Positions 2,362 through 20,311 of a stretch of DNA of 20,311 bases are shown here, piece after piece. Positions within the stretch are counted from its first letter, which is position 1. Each line of letters opens with the position of its first letter. Origin of the DNA: Escherichia coli (GTDB taxonomy: Bacteria > Pseudomonadota > Gammaproteobacteria > Enterobacterales > Enterobacteriaceae); NCBI RefSeq assembly GCF_003334335.1, contig NZ_QOWQ01000053.1, one strand, 5' to 3'. Below the pieces are notes generated by a model. That model searched no databases and was not told the DNA's origin. It was given only the letters and a program-made list of their open reading frames with translations. Both the position numbers and the translations under genes were made by a program.

Positions 2362-5300
2362 ATGGACAAGGAATTACCGTGGCTGGCGGATAACGCCCAA
2401 CTGGAACTGAAATATAAAAAAGGCAAAACACCACTCAGTCATCGCAAATGGCCGGGCGAACCGGTGCCTGTTATCACTGAAAGCATCATTCAGACACTGG
2501 GTGATAAATTGCTACAAAAAGCTGAGAAGAAAAAAAACATTGTCTGGCGTTATGAAAATTTTTCACTGGAGTGGCAGTCCGCCATCACGCAGGCCATCAA
2601 CTTGATCGGCGAACACAAACCCTCAATCCCGGCCCGGACAATGGCGGCGCTAGTCTGTATCGCGCAAAATGACAGCCAACAGTTGCTCGACGAAATCGTC
2701 CAACAAGAGGGACTGGAATATGCGACTGAGGTGGTGATTGCACGCCAGTTTATTACACGATGTTATGAGAGTGATCCTCTGCTAGTGACATTGCAGTATC
2801 AGGACGAGGATTATGGCTATGGTTATCGCTCAGAAACCTATAACGAATTCGATCTCCGACTGCGTAAGCATCTCTCTCTGGCAGAGGAAAGCAGCTGGCA
2901 GCGTTGCGCCGACAAACTCATTGCCGCACTGCCAGGAATACCCAAAATTCGCCGTCCTTTTATTGCACTACTCCTCCCGGAAAAACCTGAAATAGCCAAT
3001 GAACTCGCCAGTCTTGAAAGCTCCCGGTCAAGTCTCCATTCAAAGGAGTGGTTAAAGGTCATTGCTACTGATAATACGGCGGTAAAAAAACTCGAACGAT
3101 ACTGGGGCCTGGACGTATTTAGCGATCGCGAAGCCAGCTACATGTCACAAGAAAACCGCTTCGGCTACGCGGCCTGCGCCTCCCTTTTGCGCGAACAAGG
3201 ACTGGCAGCCGTTCCGCGCCTGGCAATGTATGCCCATAAAGAAGATTGCGGCAGTCTGCTGGTACAAATTAACCATCCGCAAGTCATCCGCACCTTGCTA
3301 CTGGTGGCTGATAAAAACAAACCCAGCCTGCAACGTGTGGCTAAATACAGTAAAAACTTCCCCCACGCGACGCTCGCCGCACTGGCAGAACTGCTGGCGT
3401 TAAAAGAACCACCAGCCCGCCCAGGTTATCCAATCATCGAAGACAAAAAGCTGCCTGCACAGCAAAAAGCACGCGATGAATACTGGCGTACGCTGTTACA
3501 AACGCTGATGGCATCGCAGCCACAACTGGCAGCAGAAGTGATGCCGTGGTTAAGTACTCAAGCCAGGGCAGTGCTGAATAGTTATTTATCGGCACCGCCA
3601 AAACCGGTTATTGATAGCACCGATAACAGCAGTCTGCCTGAAATGCTCGTTTCACCACCGTGGCGTAGTAAGAAAAAAATGACAGCTCCACGTCTTGATT
3701 TGGCACCGCTCGAATTAACTCCGCAAATTTACTGGCAACCAGGCGAACAAGAGAGGCTTGCCGCCACTGAATCTGCCCGTTATTTCAGCACGGAATCTCT
3801 TGCGGAACGCATGGAACAAAAAAGTGGACGAGTTGTATTACAGGAACTGGGTTTTGGGGATGATGTATGGCTGTTTCTGAATTATATACTCCCCGGAAAA
3901 CTGGATGCTGCACGCAATTCACTCATTGTTCAGTGGCATTACTACCAGGGGCGGGTTGAAGAGATCCTGAATGGCTGGAACTCCCCGCAAGCACAATTAG
4001 CAGAACAGGCGCTCCGCAGCGGTCACATAGAAGCGTTAATTAACATATGGGAAAATGACAACTTCTCACGTTATCGTCCGGAAAAGAGTGTCTGGAACCT
4101 GTATTTATTGGCACAGTTGCCGCGTGAGATGGCTTTGACCTTCTGGCTGCGTATCATTGAGAAAAAGCATCTGTTCGCGGGTGAGGACTATTTTCTCAGT
4201 ATCCTCGGATTGGATGCGCTACCAGGTCTGCTGTTGGCTTTTTCACATCGTCCAAAAGAAACATTTCCGTTAATTTTAAATTTTGGCGCAACAGAACTGG
4301 CGCTGCCTGTTGCCCGCGTCTGGCGACGTTTCGCGGCGCAGCGTGATCTGGCTCGCCAGTGGATTTTACAATGGCCGGAACATACGGCTAGTGCACTTAT
4401 CCCTCTTGTCTTTACCAAACCCAGCGATAATAGCGAAGCCGCATTACTTGCCCTGCGTTTACTGTACGAACAGGGACATGGCGAATTGCTACAAACCGTG
4501 GCAAACCGCTGGCAGCGTACAGATGTATGGTCTGCCCTGGAGCAGTTGCTTAAACAGGGTCCAATGGACATTTACCCGGCACGCATTCCAAAAGCCCCTG
4601 ATTTCTGGCATCCGGCAATGTGGTCCAGGCCTCGACTTATCACTAATAATCAGCCTGTTACCGGTGACGCTCTGGAAATTATCGGCGAAATGCTGCGCTT
4701 TACCCAGGGGGGACGTTTTTATAGCGGGCTGGAACAACTGAAAACGTTCTGCCAGCCACAAACGCTGGCAGCTTTTGCCTGGGATCTCTTCACTGCGTGG
4801 CAACAAGCTGGTGCCCCCGCAAAAGACAACTGGGCATTTCTGGCGTTAAGTCTCTTTGGTGACGAAAGCACGGCACGGGATCTGACGACACAGATCCTCG
4901 CCTGGCCACAAGAAGGCAAATCTGCCCGTGCTGTCAGCGGCCTGAACATCCTTACCCTGATGAATAATGATATGGCGCTGATACAGCTGCATCATATATC
5001 GCAACGGGCTAAATCCCGCCCCTTACGTGATAACGCGGCGGAATTTCTTCAGGTGGTCGCAGAAAATCGCGGGCTAAGCCAGGAAGAGCTAGCGGACAGA
5101 TTAGTCCCAACCCTGGGCCTTGATGATCCGCAGGCGTTGAGTTTTGATTTTGGTCCCCGGCAGTTTACCGTTCGCTTCGATGAAAACCTCAACCCGGTTA
5201 TCTTTGATCAGCAAAACGTTCGCCAGAAAAGCGTTCCCCGGTTGCGCGCCGATGACGATCAACTGAAAGCGCCCGAGGCACTGGCCCGACTAAAAGGGCT

Positions 5301-15041: not shown

Positions 15042-16723
15042 GCCTCGTCCCTCCATGGTAGTCGTAACGTTATTCGGGTGTAACTATCAGGCTCACAGGC
15101 GACGCTTATCCCATAGTCATCGCCAAACCGTTCACGTAAACGCTTATCCACCAGATTCATCCCCAGCCCACTGGCATTGGTTACCGGTTGATACAAACCG
15201 GCATTGTCTTCGATCTCCAGCATCAAATGTTGCCCCTCACGTCGGGCGCTGATTGCCACTCGCCCTGTATCCAGCAGTTGTGATGTCCCATGTTTAATGG
15301 CGTTTTCCACTATCGGTTGCAGGGTAAACGCGGGCAATTGCTGCTGGGATAATTCTTGCGGAATAGCAATGTTGACCTGCAACCGCGACTGGAAGCGCGC
15401 CTTTTCAATTTGCAGATAAGCGTTCACATGTTCAATTTCGTCGGCGAGAGTAACAAACTCCGAAGGCCGCTTTAAGTTTTTGCGGAAAAAAGTGGAAAGA
15501 TACTGCACCAGCTGGCTGGCCTGTTCGCTGTCGCGACGGATCACCGCTTTAATGGTGTTAAGCGCATTAAACAAAAAATGGGGGTTCACCTGGGCGTGAA
15601 GCAGTTTGATCTCTGACTGGGTGAGCATCGCTTTTTGCCGCTCATATTGCCCGGCGAGGATCTGCGCCGAAAGCAGTTGCGCAATCCCCTCGCCCAGCGT
15701 GCGGTTGATTGAACTGAATAAACGGTTTTTGGCTTCATACAATTTGATGGTGCCCATCACCCGCTGATTTTCACCACGCAACGGAATTACCAGCGTCGAC
15801 CCCAGTTTGCATTGCGGATGCAAAGAGCAACGATAAGGTACTTCGTTGCCATCAGCGTAGACCACTTCACCGGTTTCAATCGCTTTTAAGGTGTAAGTCG
15901 AAGATATCGGTTTGCCGGGTAAATGGTGGTCGTCACCAATTCCGGTAAAGGCCAGCAATTTCTCTCGATCGGTAATCGCGACTGCACCAATATCCAGCTC
16001 CTGATACAGCACCTGTGCCACTTTCATGCTGTTCACTTCGTTAAACCCCTGGCGCAAAATGCCTTCCGTCGAGGCAGCCACTTTCAGCGCAGTGGCAGAA
16101 AAAGCCGAAGTGTATTTTTCAAACATCGCGCGTTTATCGAGCAATATACGCATAAACAGCGCCGCGCCGACGGTATTGGTGACCATCATTGGCGCAGCAA
16201 TATTACTCACCAGACGCACCGCATCTTCATAAGGTCGGGCGATCGCCAGGATGATCAACATTTGCACCATTTCAGCGACGAACGTGACGGCACCGGCGGT
16301 AATGGGGTTAAAGACTTTATCAGTGCGCCCGCGACGGATCAGGATGCTGTGTACCAGGCCGCCGAGCAATCCTTCAACGATGGTCGAGATCATGCAACTT
16401 AGCGCGGTCATGCCCCCCATCGAATATCGATGTAACCCGCCGGTCAGGCCAACCAGCCCACCGACGACCGGACCGCCGAGTAAGCCGCCCATTACCGCGC
16501 CTATCGCACGGGTATTGGCAATAGAATCGTCAATGTGCAACCCAAACCAGGTGCCCATGATGCAGAAGATGGAAAAGACGATGTAGCAGAGAAATTTATG
16601 CGGCAGACGAACCGTGACCTGCATTAACGGTATGAATAATGGCGTTTTACTCATTAACCATGCAATGACTAAAAAAACGCACATCTGCTGAAGCAGCAGC
16701 AACACCAGATTAAAATCGTACAT
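15038..16723 (-). CDS. btsS: BtsS (YehU), LytS-type sensor histidine kinase (561 aa), pyruvate sensing
   Basis: Start [10 protein letters not shown] at 16723 gives 561 aa. The N-terminus is polytopic and Gly-rich, the central part is GAF-like, and the C-terminal kinase carries [16 protein letters not shown] and an HATPase region. It matches K-12 YehU/BtsS from memory. Confidence 0.95.
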
Positions 16724-16944
16724 ACCCGCAAACCACACTTCCCTTTAAAACGCGTAACATACATTGCCTGCGTTTAACTTTCTTTGAACTCTTGCAGAAA
16801 AATGAGAATTCGTGAGTACGATCACTCAAAATCGCCTGGCAAAAATAAAATCACCCTATAAATGCACAAAAAACGGGCAAAACTACCTGGTTCGCAAAAC
16901 TGCGTCTAAAGTTAAACCGGGACCTCGCGAGCAAGGGTGAGACG

Positions 16945-17013
16945 ATGGCGCTTTACACAATTGGTGAAGTGGCGTTGCTTTGTGATATTAACCCTGTCAC
17001 GTTACGCGCGTGA
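16945..17013 (+). pseudogene. mlrA: 5' fragment of mlrA (yehV), the MerR-family activator of csgD, truncated after codon 22
   Basis: It reads MALYTIGEVALLCDINPVTLRA then TGA, whereas MlrA continues WQRRYGLLKPQ. Nothing downstream in any frame continues MlrA. The truncation falls inside the N-terminal HTH. Confidence 0.85.
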
Positions 17014-17030
17014 CGCAACATTTTTAAAAA

Positions 17031-17110
17031 TCGACGAAGATCGTCCAGGAGCGCCGTTTTTCAAGGGTTGGATAGATGATTCGTTTACCATGTCGACGAA
17101 CTTCGACGAA
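17031..17110. repeat. Three copies of TCGACGAA, two of them 10 bp apart
   Basis: tcgacgaa occurs at 17031-17038, 17093-17100 and 17103-17110, followed by a degenerate ttcgccga. gacga/tcgtc forms a small inverted repeat at 17033-17045. The palindrome T5A5 at 17021-17030 lies just after the junction. Confidence 0.6.
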
Positions 17111-17136
17111 TTTCGCCGATAAAAAGTGTCCCATAC

Positions 17137-17156
17137 ATGCCCCATTGATGCCCCAT
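17137..17156. repeat. Tandem ATGCCCCAT x2 with 11-bp register
   Basis: atgccccat occurs at 17137-17145 and 17148-17156. Confidence 0.6.
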
Positions 17157-17171
17157 AAACAATATCAGGAA

Positions 17172-17201
17172 TTGACACTGGTTATCCATACAGACAAAAA
17201 T
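17172..17201 (+). promoter_or_regulatory. Candidate promoter of the dinI-like gene (TTGACA-18 nt-AAAAAT)
   Basis: A perfect -35 ttgaca at 17172-17177 and a weak -10 aaaaat at 17196-17201. The predicted TSS falls inside the LexA box. Confidence 0.35.
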
Positions 17202-17206
17202 AACAC

Positions 17207-17222
17207 CTGTACATAACCACAG
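17207..17222 (+). promoter_or_regulatory. LexA (SOS) box CTG-N10-CAG
   Basis: acCTGtacataaccaCAGtt has the CTGT-N8-ACAG core. It lies 16 nt upstream of the dinI-like ATG and resembles the chromosomal dinI operator as I remember it (ACCTGTATAAATAACCAGTA). Confidence 0.6.
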
Positions 17223-17237
17223 TTACAGGAGGGTGTT

Positions 17238-17486
17238 ATGCGTGTTGAGATCTGTATCGCTAAAGAAAAAATCAGCAAAATGCCAAAAGGTTCTGTTTCT
17301 GCCCTGCAGCAAGAAATGCTTCGACGTGTCAGTAAACGTTATGACGATGTGGACGTGATTGTCAGAGCCGCCAACAATGACAGTCTCACCATTTTAAGAG
17401 CTGTAGATAAAGAATCCGCGCACGAATTTGTTCAGGAAACACTGCAGGAAGCCTGGGAAACCGCTGACGACTGGTTTATTCGGTAA
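17238..17486 (+). CDS. DinI-family protein (82 aa), prophage-encoded
   Basis: AGGAGGG lies 5 nt upstream of the ATG. It aligns with E. coli DinI (MR.E..IAK at the N-terminus; [12 protein letters not shown] against LQETWESADDWF at the C-terminus). Confidence 0.88.
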
Positions 17487-17497
17487 ATCTTCTTTAC

Positions 17498-17524
17498 GGG
17501 GAGTTAACTTACTCCCCATTTTTT
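17498..17524 (+). terminator. Rho-independent terminator of the dinI-like gene
   Basis: ggggagt (17498-17504), loop taactt, actcccc (17511-17517), then A+T6. The T-tract overlaps the stop codon of the convergent small ORF. Confidence 0.8.
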
Positions 17525-17651
17525 ATTGCATGATAATTGCAGCAACGGCACAGAGTGTCACCACACCACCCAGCCACACAAACAGCATGAAGCACATTGC
17601 TCCCGCTGTATAACGTTTTCTCCCGTACATACGGCATTTGTCTTTATTCAT
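17523..17651 (-). CDS. Candidate 42-aa single-pass membrane peptide
   Basis: MNKDKCRMYGRKRYTAGAMCFMLFVWLGGVVTLCAVAAIIMQ has a basic N-terminus followed by a ~24-residue hydrophobic helix. AGGGG lies 6 nt upstream of this ATG, and a second ATG sits one codon upstream at 17654. The ORF lies 46 nt downstream of the LuxR-type gene on the same strand. I recognise no family. Confidence 0.3.
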   Translation of the reverse strand: MNKDKCRMYGRKRYTAGAMCFMLFVWLGGVVTLCAVAAIIMQ

Positions 17652-17700
17652 CATCTGCCCCTGAATCACATGAAGACGCTGCAGGTCCGGTAACACTGAA

Positions 17701-18174
17701 TCACTCCGCACACGCAAGATGTTTCACGCTCACACCATACAGCCCGTTTTTCGCCATTCCCGTATACAGAAAGGTATTCACCGTCTTCGTGTGAATGCCC
17801 ATTTCACTGGCAAGGCGACAGGGTCTCGACTGGCGGTAGACGTAGCCAAACATCACCACCATCTCTGACATCGTCAGCGGACGGGCAACGCTGTTATACG
17901 TCCATACACCATTGCGTATGGCATCACTTATCTGCTCACCATCACGGAGTGATTCCGCACCCAGTTGCAGAAAATGCCGTCCCTGGAACATGCAGCGCAT
18001 CAGTCTGCCCAGCAACGTATCACAGATTATCAGCCAGGATTCGTCAAAGTCCGGGATATAACGGCGGTTCTCCGGCAGGAAAAACTCCCTCGCCAGTATC
18101 ACACTGTGTTCCTTCAGTAACGCCTGCAGACCATACTCCAGATAGCGATTCCTGGTAGCCAGAATCACCTTCAT
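17701..18174 (-). CDS. Small LuxR/GerE-type HTH regulator with a degenerate receiver-like N-terminus (157 aa)
   Basis: The C-terminus LTMSEMVVMF...RLASEMGIHTKTVNTFLYTGMAKNGL fits the LuxR/FixJ HTH pattern (LT..E..V......iA.elgIs.kTV..h...i..KLg.). The N-terminus MKVILATRNRY lacks the acidic DD pocket. ATG 18174 has GGAAGG 7 nt upstream, whereas the track start at 18204 has no SD. Confidence 0.75.
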   Translation of the reverse strand: MKVILATRNRYLEYGLQALLKEHSVILAREFFLPENRRYIPDFDESWLIICDTLLGRLMRCMFQGRHFLQLGAESLRDGEQISDAIRNGVWTYNSVARPLTMSEMVVMFGYVYRQSRPCRLASEMGIHTKTVNTFLYTGMAKNGLYGVSVKHLACAE

Positions 18175-18209
18175 CGCAGCACCTTCCTGTTTTTTATGCC
18201 CCATGAAAA

Positions 18210-18238
18210 ACGGCAGACCAGAGTCCTGCGCCTGCCGT
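18210..18238 (-). terminator. Weak terminator/attenuator after the adhesin gene
   Basis: On the - strand acggcag (18238-18232) pairs with ctgccgt (18216-18210) around a 15-nt loop, followed by only TTTT. It sits directly upstream of the LuxR-type gene, so read-through is likely. Confidence 0.35.
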
Positions 18239-18262
18239 CATGCTTCATGTCACTGTCAGCAA

Positions 18263-19336
18263 TTAAAACTCGAAGTTCACACCTACGTTGTAGGAAACAT
18301 CACCGTCGCTGGCCGCAATACCTGCTTTGGCTGCGGTCTGCTCGTTGAAGCGGTAACCCACACCAACAGCCACAGCCTGTTTGTCACTGTAACCACCCAG
18401 GGCTGCCGTGGCGTTGAATTTACCCACACTGTACGGCTGGAACAGACCGGACAGCGCCGCACTCTGTGCTGCCGCACGTTTCATTTCTTCGTGGTTTTCA
18501 CGAATCTGGCGCTGCTGGCTGTTCAGGCGTGCGTTATGCTCCTGCAGCTGGCGGGAGTGATTCTGGATAGCCTGGGTGTTACTGCGGGTTCTGTTGTCGA
18601 GGCTGACAACAGCATCATTCACACGAACGTTGCCCGGTGCGCTCTGGTCAAGTGTATAGCTGCCATCTTTATTCTGATAAATTGTTGTATCTGCTTTCAC
18701 ACCCGCAACAACGCTCTTCACAGATACACTTTCAACACCCTGTCCATCAGTAATTTCACCATTCTCATCAAGGGCAAATGTAGTGGCATTTTTCAGGTCA
18801 TTTACATTTGTGCCGAGACGGTTGAACTCATTCAGTAACCCACCTGTCGAATCCTGTTTAACAGCAGCCAGAGCTGACTCAACACTAACACCGTTGTTAA
18901 TGGCTGTGTTATAAGCCCTTGCTGTTTTTGTTGTAATGGTTTCTGAAACAATATCGATGGTTTCTTTTAGTTTATTTAGTTTTTCCTCTGTTATATTTCC
19001 AATGTTTTCTTTTTTTAGTTCTGGTGCATCAATAGTGTAACGAACAGACTCCAGAAGTGATTGAACCTTATCCTTGTTTTTTATATCATTTACATTTATA
19101 CCATTTACTTTTTTCTTCCACTCATCTCTATTAAACGTTGTAATAGTTCCTGTGACCGTGTTAGCAATAATTCCTTCGCCATTTTTATTTACAATTTTAG
19201 CCATATCACCGTTATTATAAAACTCAACTCTGAAATCACCTCTTGTAAAATTCTCCTGCGCTATAGCACCACCACTCACCAACAACAGACCGGCAACAGC
19301 AGATGAAAGAATAGTCTTTGTAAATTTCTTGCTCAT
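18263..19336 (-). CDS. Trimeric autotransporter adhesin with YadA-type C-terminal anchor, Eib-like (357 aa)
   Basis: The Sec signal peptide [26 protein letters not shown]|QE is followed by a Q/N/R-rich coiled-coil stalk ([37 protein letters not shown]). The C-terminal 4-strand anchor is [63 protein letters not shown], ending in aromatic F. From memory this anchor is very close to the prophage-borne Eib proteins. Confidence 0.9.
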
Positions 19337-19353
19337 GTGGTATACCCTATAAA

Positions 19354-19382
19354 ATTATCTGTATACAAATAAAACAGTTCAA
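19354..19382 (-). promoter_or_regulatory. Candidate sigma70 promoter of the adhesin gene (TTGAAC-17 nt-GATAAT)
   Basis: On the - strand the -35 is ttgaac (19382-19377), the spacer is 17 nt, and the -10 is gataat (19359-19354). The palindrome TGTATACA (19360-19367) lies in the spacer. The ATG is about 18-25 nt downstream of the predicted TSS. Confidence 0.45.
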
Positions 19383-19439
19383 CATCGGATATATAAAGAA
19401 AATCTGATGTCTCGCCGCTCTCATGAGCTTACTCCTGAA

Positions 19440-19477
19440 GAAATTCCGAATTTTAATATGAAGTTTTTCGGAATTTC
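19440..19477. repeat. Perfect 11-bp inverted repeat GAAATTCCGAA / TTCGGAATTTC with a 16-nt spacer
   Basis: The arms are at 19440-19450 and 19467-19477. The repeat lies about 60-100 bp upstream of the adhesin promoter candidate. Confidence 0.75.
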
Positions 19478-19712
19478 CTTACTATAACGTCGGTGATATC
19501 ACGTCCGCGAAGGGGTATCCGCATTACGACTGGCCTGCCACTTATGCTGTCTCTTTATTCATCAACAATTTGTATACGGTTACATCTTTAATTGTGAAGT
19601 TAGTCACAAAAAGAAGAAAGTCAAATAATCAAATTGTGCTTAACTGTTTACATCAGCACAATCTGATAACCATTGAAGGACGCACTAAATTATTTTCAGC
19701 AATCCCTCAGCC

Positions 19713-19729
19713 TACGAAAATTCTGTATT
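19713..19729. repeat. Copy 1 of the exact 17-mer TACGAAAATTCTGTATT
   Basis: It is identical to 19889-19905, which lies 176 bp away. Confidence 0.85.
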
Positions 19730-19882
19730 TGATGATTGTTTTATTTGCTCTCTTTTTATGCAGCCATTCTGTTGCTTATAAAAAAGCACCACTATCTCAT
19801 GTATAATTTCTGGGTCTGTCGTCTCCCCGTTTTTCACTTACAGATGCCGGGCAACATTCAGTTGCCGGAATCAGCAGTTACC

Positions 19883-19909
19883 ATGCAATACGAAAATTCT
19901 GTATTGCAT
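19883..19909. repeat. Copy 2 of the 17-mer, embedded in the perfect 9-bp inverted repeat ATGCAATAC / GTATTGCAT
   Basis: The 17-mer is at 19889-19905. The inverted-repeat arms are at 19883-19891 and 19901-19909 around a 9-nt loop gaaaattct. Confidence 0.85.
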
Positions 19910-19977
19910 CCACGCCCTCATCTCAATATCTTTGTCGCCGGATAAAAATAACTATCAACCACAAGTATCATGCTCTC

Positions 19978-20003
19978 GGGGAGCACGCACTCCCCAGTTT
20001 TTT
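19978..20003 (+). terminator. Rho-independent terminator, + orientation
   Basis: ggggag (19978-19983), loop cacgca, ctcccc (19990-19995), then ag and T6 (19998-20003). On the - strand no T-tract follows the hairpin. Confidence 0.75.
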
Positions 20004-20106
20004 ATCTTTGACAGGGGTGAAGGAGGCCGTTGCATCTCCTTTAATTATCATTGCCAGATTATTTCCTCGACCTGAGTATTCTTTATTTAGCCATAGTTTT
20101 GTAGCA

Positions 20107-20132
20107 AGGGGCTGGAGCGCCCCTCTTTTTTT
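20107..20132 (+). terminator. Rho-independent terminator, + orientation, abutting the stop of the convergent phage gene
   Basis: aggggc (20107-20112), loop tggagc, gcccct (20119-20124), then c and T7 (20126-20132). The last T is part of the - strand stop codon (20132-20134). Confidence 0.7.
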
Positions 20133-20311
20133 CACCTGTCAGCCATGCCGACCTTATACGCCAGTATAGCTTCCGCATCACCCAGCGCTTCAATCTCTTT
20201 TTTCATCGTGCGCTGTCTGACATGAATTTCCAGACCTTTGGTAAACATCGCCTGCTCTGCAGCAGCACTCAGAGCAATCAGTGTTTCAGCGTCCATCGGT
20301 ACGTCATTATT
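20132..20311 (-). CDS. 3' end (59 codons) of a phage gene truncated by the window edge, possibly a tail-fibre-region protein with a DUF4376-like C-terminus
   Basis: The - strand frame is open to the window edge: ...NNDVPMDAETLIALSAAAEQAMFTKGLEIHVRQRTMKKEIEALGDAEAILAYKVGMADR*. The pattern resembles C-terminal domains I associate with phage tail-fibre accessory proteins. That assignment is from memory only. Confidence 0.55.
   Translation of the reverse strand, partial: NNDVPMDAETLIALSAAAEQAMFTKGLEIHVRQRTMKKEIEALGDAEAILAYKVGMADR

Follow-up and report, generated by a model that had tools for sequence, protein, structure and literature searches.

Does the abrupt change in base composition within a prophage adhesin gene of Escherichia coli record a single recent fusion, in which a conserved export module acquired a foreign head? 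The question is raised by a window of 20,311 nucleotides from contig NZ_QOWQ01000053.1 (assembly GCF_003334335.1), which contains, at 18263..19336 on the (-) strand, a complete coding sequence (stop codon 18263-18265) for a trimeric autotransporter adhesin (TAA) of 357 amino acids. An earlier reading of the letters, made without database searches (hereafter the sequence-only reading), took the gene for a chimera of a GC-rich anchor and a newly acquired AT-rich head. The product is 100% identical to WP_114494374.1 (“YadA C-terminal domain-containing protein,” E. coli SW070917), and the gene is 100% identical to the “putative adhesin/invasin” gene of Escherichia phage PhiR5_1. The analysis indicates that it is very probably an intact “moron,” or accessory gene, of a lambdoid prophage resembling PhiR5_1 and encodes a short adhesin that is related to the Eib proteins and belongs to a mosaic family. 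The TAA is a fairly ordinary uncharacterised Eib relative, and not a one-off fusion.

The protein can be divided into five parts, all encoded on the (-) strand. A predicted Sec signal peptide (19262..19336, codons 1-25) was read from the sequence by its n-region (MSKKFTK, with the KK pair), hydrophobic core, and A-I-A before the cleavage site, which was placed between AIA and QE by inspection only. The variable AT-rich head (18788..19261, codons 26-183) consists of a five-strand beta unit at approximately residues 30-68, a hypervariable linker at 70-100, and short helices. The head is followed by the saddle region (18587..18787, codons 184-250), in which a weak saddle-like unit (184-212) precedes a clear Eib-type saddle (213-250), by a left-handed coiled-coil stalk (18443..18586, codons 251-298), and by a YadA-type beta-barrel membrane anchor with four strands per monomer (18266..18442, codons 299-357). 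Pfam recognized YadA_anchor alone (residues 299-357, E 1e-15), and the YadA head and stalk repeats PF05658 and PF05662 had no match in the protein at E <= 0.1. Searches of PDB sequences with phmmer matched the anchor to the YadA structure 2lme (E 1.7e-18) and residues 243-289 to the EibD stalk in 2xzr (E 7e-8), and no match was found between the head part and the EibD head structure 2xqh. Residues 213-250 aligned without gaps to the EibD saddle with a score of 69, compared with 21.8 +/- 4.4 for shuffles (z = 10.7), whereas the alignment of residues 181-214 was weaker (z = 3.2-3.8). The saddle module was also found fused to a YadA-type head in another protein (P0173). The heptad run begins inside the saddle at residue 243 and continues through nine unbroken heptads, with V, T, I, L, L, I, M, S, and F at the “a” positions and L, N, H, H, Q, N, A, and L at the “d” positions. 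Hydrophobic “a” residues and polar “d” residues, here N, H, and Q, are the usual pattern of TAA stalks.

The protein therefore combines the features of type Vc systems, namely a YadA-like anchor, a Sec signal peptide (by inspection), and a coiled-coil stalk entering the anchor. Two claims of the sequence-only reading are borne out by these results: the gene encodes a short trimeric autotransporter, and its tip has none of the known YadA head repeats, since none were found by Pfam and the head had no match in Pfam or PDB. An AlphaFold2 monomer model, built from a 54-sequence alignment and numbered one lower than the protein, predicted five beta strands (29-67), short helices up to 183 at a predicted local distance difference test (pLDDT) score of approximately 80-87, beta hairpins at 186-196 and 217-237, one long helix (238-297), and the four anchor strands. 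A fold search with this model returned matches to the anchor alone and none to the head.

The compositional contrast along the gene is strong. In 150-bp windows, GC content is 0.57-0.59 at 18300-18650 vs. 0.28-0.32 at 18900-19250; across the whole 20-kb window (50-bp step), the 5′ half of the TAA gene holds five of the six windows with the lowest GC, whose counterparts in its 3′ part lie near the 95th percentile. By segment, GC and GC at third codon positions (GC3) are 0.348 and 0.278 in the head (codons 26-183), 0.463 and 0.373 in the saddle (codons 184-250), and 0.567 and 0.626 in the stalk plus anchor (codons 251-357). The head and the C-terminus differ in composition when all positions are counted (chi2 = 36, p = 1.6e-9), and because the contrast also holds at third positions alone (chi2 = 30, p = 3.8e-8), it does not merely reflect the amino acid composition of a head rich in Lys, Asn, and Ile. 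The AT-rich 5′ part and GC-rich 3′ part that the sequence-only reading had described by eye are confirmed by both measures, and the peptide that it quoted from the head is present in the translation. Its gradient holds, but its placement of the boundary at 18700 does not, as the sharp step in GC3 lies slightly further 3′, at about codon 240-250 (approximately nt 18590-18620). A 211-aa open reading frame on the (+) strand (18203-18838), antisense to the GC-rich 3′ part, had no support as a real gene and was taken as spurious; it probably arises from the base composition.

Several of these observations would fit one recent fusion, in which a conserved module for export and trimerisation, rich in GC, was joined to a foreign, AT-rich head that brought a new ligand specificity. 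The step in GC3 is real and sharp (0.28 to 0.63), the head is without a Pfam or PDB match, and the 3′ block is common to genes with other heads. Such a fusion is nevertheless very unlikely, because every full-length relative examined has the head plan of the TAA and its GC gradient, and because the identical gene is already present in phage PhiR5_1 and strain SW070917. Furthermore, the head alleles are at synonymous saturation, and the head lineage is therefore old within the family.

The relatives that carry this head are numerous. A search of 5.8 billion proteins with the TAA returned 1903 matches, of which dozens were full length (350-430 aa, 50-99% identity); these full-length relatives were all from E. 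coli and were named “YadA C-terminal domain-containing protein” or “hypothetical,” and the names of cluster members were likewise generic labels only. At least 73 full-length E. coli proteins align along their whole length with the head plan of the TAA. Mean identity across the 73 is 89% in the signal peptide, 21-54% at residues 21-130, at least 74% from residue 170, and over 96% at residues 250-357. Their heads align with few gaps around the consensus IGDxYxIxF..NG..AKIV ... INTxTGTITTxN ... RYxIDxPSLKxENI ... ITSKTAxAYNxAI.NG, and PHROG 9547 (function unknown) matches the TAA as a full-length profile (E 1.5e-150, 503 bits). When the head alone was used to search 1.84 billion cluster representatives, 26 matches were obtained, and all inspected ones belonged to the TAA family except P0164. 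This eukaryotic kinase with several SH3 repeats was rejected as a relative, as it shared a short motif (YNNG..KNGEG) and its score was inflated by six repeats. When one genome per species was scanned with anchor patterns as seeds, an approach that heads on other anchors would escape, the matches outside E. coli spanned only the C-terminal ~75-120 residues (distal stalk and anchor). The head class is uncharacterised, yet common to the whole family, and the idea of a newly acquired head is not upheld, given that the same plan extends over the full length of 73 E. coli proteins.

The GC gradient is shared to the same extent. DNA-level comparison covered 18 full-length relatives (17 viral-contig loci and L002), and in all 18 the head has a GC of 0.29-0.39 and a GC3 of 0.14-0.34, with values of 0.53-0.57 and 0.51-0.63, respectively, in the last 115 codons. 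Eib-type genes with other heads show the same gradient in a milder form. Within the TAA gene, GC3 correlates with conservation (Spearman 0.67, p = 7e-4). Throughout the family, composition changes from an AT-rich head to a GC-rich stalk and anchor, and this step tracks conservation; with the gradient seen in 18 of 18 relatives, it cannot be read as the scar of one fusion. The GC shift thus lies within the norm of the gene family, whereas uniform similarity along the whole protein to a characterised Eib, which the sequence-only reading had also named as speaking against a chimera, was not found. The ancestor of the family may have had an ancient chimeric origin, but this would not be specific to the TAA gene.

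The family instead evolves by exchange. The TAA gene is a recombinational mosaic in which the head region is a replaceable cassette, with further breakpoints inside the head. Identity to the TAA flips abruptly between identical blocks and blocks of 10-50%, with different relatives switching at positions of about 15-20, 60, 90-100, 170, and 220. Between heads, synonymous divergence (dS) is 1.3 to over 4 (saturated) and nonsynonymous divergence (dN) is 0.6-0.8, with a dN/dS below 1. In codons 241-357, dS is 0.00 relative to loci L005-L008. Compared with L004, codons 101-170 have a dS of 0.02, and both flanks have a dS > 1.

Two conserved arms border the cassette. The AT-rich intergenic region upstream of the TAA gene (19337..20131, (-), GC 0.39) shares 92-99% identity with the corresponding region at loci whose TAA heads are very dissimilar (L005, L006, L008, L015, L025, L026, and L030). 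Together with the signal-peptide codons, up to 864 bp of upstream sequence forms a 5′ arm that is conserved at this level in loci with unrelated heads, in which the conservation reaches approximately codon 20-25. The 3′ arm, again conserved in loci with unrelated heads (79-94% identity), begins at about codon 252 and includes the downstream gene. Approximately 1% of complete E. coli genomes carry TAA-type genes, and each carrier contains 1-6 copies, which therefore provide partners for exchange. The description “chimeric” is true of the whole family and not of a unique event in this gene.

The conserved part of the TAA is of Eib type. The 3′ 40-50% of the gene has 89-99% DNA identity to longer Eib-like genes, and residues 213-357 are 60-74% identical to the proteins of Eib-like loci. 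The resemblance of the anchor to the Eib proteins, which the sequence-only reading had proposed, is supported by this DNA identity, by the match to 2xzr, and by the saddle alignment. Longer relatives of 416-463 aa contain a second saddle and a segment, GRTDRIDAAVGGIDTRVTK, that matches EibD in 2xqh, and some of them have an exact EibD-type stalk. EibD and EibG (2xqh, 2xzr), which bind immunoglobulin G (IgG) and A (IgA) and form chains, have a saddle, left-handed stalk, and anchor homologous to those of the TAA and occur in the same prophage context. In contrast, the TAA lacks their left-handed beta-roll YadA-like head, neck, and right-handed coiled coil, and its stalk is three heptads shorter and is without the Fc-contact segment. 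In alignments with EibD, two stretches are missing from the TAA, namely the 14 residues DRIDYAVGAIDGRV that follow the saddle and the heptad SIEKNSK; accordingly, the Eib post-saddle segment for IgG Fc contact, RID[YA]AVG, is absent.

These losses bear on whether the TAA is a true immunoglobulin-binding Eib, that is, a short EibA-like form that binds the Fc part of IgG or IgA without immune specificity. The Eib-type saddle, stalk, and anchor are in agreement with such a protein, as are the prophage position and downstream gene, which are the same in EibA-like loci (392-396 aa) and in loci that join an Eib region to a YadA head; the YadA head is also dispensable in the family, as indicated by EibA (PMC7568254). 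However, the missing DRIDYAVGAIDGRV and SIEKNSK stretch holds an Asp and a Tyr implicated in Fc binding. In EibG, D391 is required for IgG Fc binding, and both the D391A substitution and a Cla-type replacement of the Fc site abolish it, although chain-like adhesion persists after the replacement (PMC13534694). D391 adjoins A392, from which we infer its place in RIDAAVG. In addition, homology between the head and the N-terminal “Eib region” is unproven, since a comparison of the two profiles with hhalign gave a weak match (probability 9%, E 0.0036, 65 columns). An immunoglobulin-binding TAA is thus unlikely, and in a protein without the post-saddle segment that supplies the Asp and Tyr for Fc contact, IgG Fc binding in the manner of Eib proteins would not be expected. 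A 349-aa relative (L027 2335-3384) contains three tandem post-saddle units of the form GRTDKIDAAVG.IDGRVTNNTQSIGENSKTIASVN.GL.KL; if the post-saddle unit is the Fc-binding site, this relative carries multiple copies of it.

Three loci encoding proteins of 392-396 aa (L025, L026, and L030) are taken here to be EibA-like from their length and N-terminus, rather than from an accession. They share with the TAA the MSKKFTK signal peptide, the saddle-stalk-anchor block, the regulator-like gene downstream, and an upstream arm that is 92-98% identical. In contrast, their proteins retain the post-saddle RIDAAVGAIDGRV and SIEKNSK, both of which the TAA lacks, and BLASTP aligned them with the TAA over residues 213-357 only (60%), with no alignment between the heads. 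EibA was consequently rejected as a member of the TAA head family, as the EibA-like loci align from residue 213 onward only. EibA itself, from an ECOR-9 prophage (392 aa), binds immunoglobulin and is, like the TAA, a short prophage-borne protein without a YadA-like head or neck, yet it autoaggregates and forms biofilm (PMC7568254).

ClaA, ClaB, and Yal (Kotaka et al., 2026, PMC13534694) are EibG-like TAAs of E. coli that confer adhesion and serum resistance although they lack IgG binding; they were compared with the TAA by description only. EibG, ClaA, and ClaB confer chain-like adhesion and serum resistance (PMC13534694). Cla proteins are lollipop-like and occupy genomic contexts distinct from those of Eib (PMC13534694), whereas the TAA gene lies in an Eib-type context. 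JNEC-KY strains of the Kotaka et al. study carry relatives of the TAA gene. A 423-aa relative with the TAA head was present in full length in 9 of 5426 complete genomes and in only one of the JNEC genomes listed, and this distribution is unlike the ~96% prevalence of claB (PMC13534694); the relative was therefore not regarded as ClaB. YadA of Yersinia shares type Vc export and an anchor that is ~47% identical to that of the TAA. On the other hand, the TAA scored 64.7 bits against the NCBIfam YadA model (cutoff 750) and is without head repeats or a collagen-binding head.

The TAA gene is located in the right end of a lambda-like prophage, which was recognized by its match to PhiR5_1 and extends from 17013 to 20311, continuing past the edge of the window. 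This interval is identical at 3298 of 3299 nt (99.97%) to the last 3.3 kb of the PhiR5_1 genome (PV340545; recorded host E. coli C), and the match ends one base short of the end of that record. The prophage thus has a counterpart among deposited phage genomes. The gene order in PhiR5_1 is gpJ, lom, tail fibre, DUF4376 tail-fibre assembly, TAA, a 157-aa gene, and dinI, the last of which lies at 17238-17486 (+) in the window (DinI Pfam, E 4.5e-16). In SW070917, gpJ, lom, the tail fibre gene, and the DUF4376 tail-fibre assembly gene likewise lie upstream of the TAA gene. A position downstream of the tail-fibre genes of a lambdoid prophage is the Eib-type context, and loci with Eib heads have the same flanks. 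A literature search on phage PhiR5_1 found only a passing mention, in a panel of temperate lambda relatives. The prophage of SW070917 (L001 1-10822, L066 38553-39716) is the same lambdoid prophage with a Mu-like prophage inserted among the tail genes, and an ompC-like porin gene lies between tail genes.

The neighbourhood of tail genes might suggest that the product serves the phage in its structure or in adsorption, as a tail-associated “adhesin,” and is not a bacterial surface protein. PHROG 17426 and 26246 are in the category “tail,” the TAA gene directly follows the tail-fibre and assembly genes on the same strand, and a hypervariable tip with cassette exchange recalls the evolution of receptor-binding proteins. 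This explanation is highly improbable, as the Sec signal peptide and beta-barrel anchor place the TAA in the bacterial outer membrane, the characterised relatives Eib and Cla are bacterial surface adhesins, an AT-rich gap of ~800 bp with a promoter-like site separates the TAA gene from the tail genes, and the same cassette occurs in an ICE-like (integrative and conjugative element), non-phage setting. The latter is found in GCA_902838015.1 (L064 4001-5692), where a 357-aa relative with the TAA head plan and a homologue of the regulator-like gene lie beside ICE-type conjugation genes (DUF2895, DUF3487, DUF2976, DUF3262, and RAQPRD), with no phage tail genes adjoining. The pair in this context indicates that a two-gene cassette moves between kinds of mobile elements.

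The prophage is inserted in mlrA, a curli regulator gene. A 5′ remnant of 22 codons (MALYTIGEVALLCDINPVTLRA, then a stop) lies at 16946..17011 (+), as read from the translation at the prophage junction, and homology to intact mlrA ends at window position 17012 in all listed prophage-free genomes. The gene is split after codon 22, with the core overlap PVTLRA. In SW070917, the rest of mlrA, from Pro17 (L067 8504-9205), adjoins a phage integrase at a distance of approximately 92 kb; although its annotation still reads MlrA (233 aa), this remainder has neither a start nor a promoter of its own and lacks helix 1 of the DNA-binding domain. The split of mlrA, seen at the junction as well as in SW070917, agrees with the loss of curli regulation that the sequence-only reading proposed. 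A short inverted repeat, CGTTACGCGCGTGACG, lies at 17000-17015 (+), exactly at the mlrA/prophage junction, and possibly belongs to the attachment core.

Downstream of the TAA gene, the 157-aa gene (17701..18174, (-)) is predicted to encode an atypical NarL/FixJ-like protein with a receiver-like domain and a LuxR/GerE-type helix-turn-helix (HTH). In 25 of the 26 loci with enough sequence, whatever the head type, a gap of ~88 bp separates it from the TAA gene upstream. It is seen in E. coli only and has a good ribosome-binding site (AGGAAGG) ahead of its ATG at 18174. The protein matches PHROG 6585 and had no match in Pfam or NCBIfam. Its AlphaFold2 model has a pLDDT of 85 and a predicted template modelling (pTM) score of 0.78, and the top 40 Foldseek matches are all NarL/FixJ response regulators (E ~1e-3 to 6e-2, template modelling score 0.3-0.5), while a profile search of PDB recovered LuxR/GerE HTH proteins only (E 0.13). 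The protein has retained Asp52 and lacks the Asp-Asp pair after beta1. From the modelled fold, it is plausible that this protein is an atypical regulator and a candidate dedicated regulator of eib-type genes.

Between the TAA gene and its upstream neighbours, a consensus scan gave a candidate promoter-like site, TTGAAC-17-GATAAT (19354..19382, (-)), 18 nt upstream of the ATG, and a weak AGGG ribosome-binding site lies between the two. A pattern scan gave a candidate hairpin, weak and terminator-like, in the interval that separates the TAA gene from the regulator-like gene (18213..18229, (-)). An Rfam search of 16700-20311 found no match.

Several points weigh against the interpretation of the TAA as an Eib-related moron product with a dedicated regulator. 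The AlphaFold2 model is a monomer model of an obligate trimer (mean pLDDT 69.5), and the predicted head fold and the missing fold matches are weak evidence. The regulatory role of the 157-aa gene depends on low scores in both the fold search (E ~1e-3) and the profile search (0.13) and is weakly supported. The candidate promoter and terminator are no better than chance, since promoter-like sites in the region are no more numerous than in shuffles. A literature search found no paper that describes a protein with this head type. Finally, the heads are AT-rich despite synonymous saturation, which may reflect selection (e.g., for H-NS silencing), mutation bias, or repeated import.

The TAA gene is probably still functional, because its open reading frame is intact, dN/dS is below 1 in the head, and a deposited phage genome contains the gene unchanged. 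Based on the domains, the Sec signal peptide would direct export to the periplasm, the four-strand C-terminal units of three chains would form a 12-strand barrel, and the exported passenger would fold into a coiled coil of nine heptads with a polar core, a saddle of Eib type, and a head of ~160 residues. On lysogens, by analogy with EibA, EibD, EibG, and Cla, the TAA would cause autoaggregation or surface adhesion and would probably confer complement resistance, and the adjacent NarL/FixJ-like protein may be its dedicated regulator. The head sequence probably sets the specificity of self-association, as suggested by the finding that coaggregation of TAAs follows sequence similarity (PMC7568254). 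Homotypic aggregation with exclusion of others has been reported for EibA vs. EibD (PMC7568254). An extension of this idea, by which the heads would be determinants of self-recognition that aggregate lysogens with the same allele and exclude others, phages would swap heads and regulator to define “kin” groups, and the head would have a fold previously unseen in TAAs, is speculative and, on balance, doubtful.

These results add an uncharacterised head class to the Eib/Cla prophage adhesins, which influence how E. coli aggregates, colonises under flow, and resists complement. They also caution that a GC step within a gene is not evidence of a unique fusion, since it is here a stable, family-wide property. 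The significance of this single locus is modest, and the leads of most use are its regulator-like partner gene and the possible specificity of self-aggregation set by the head. The conserved and undescribed 157-aa partner gene could account for the control of Eib expression, which is poorly understood, and the locus illustrates that the Eib/Cla group evolves by swapping head cassettes between conserved arms.

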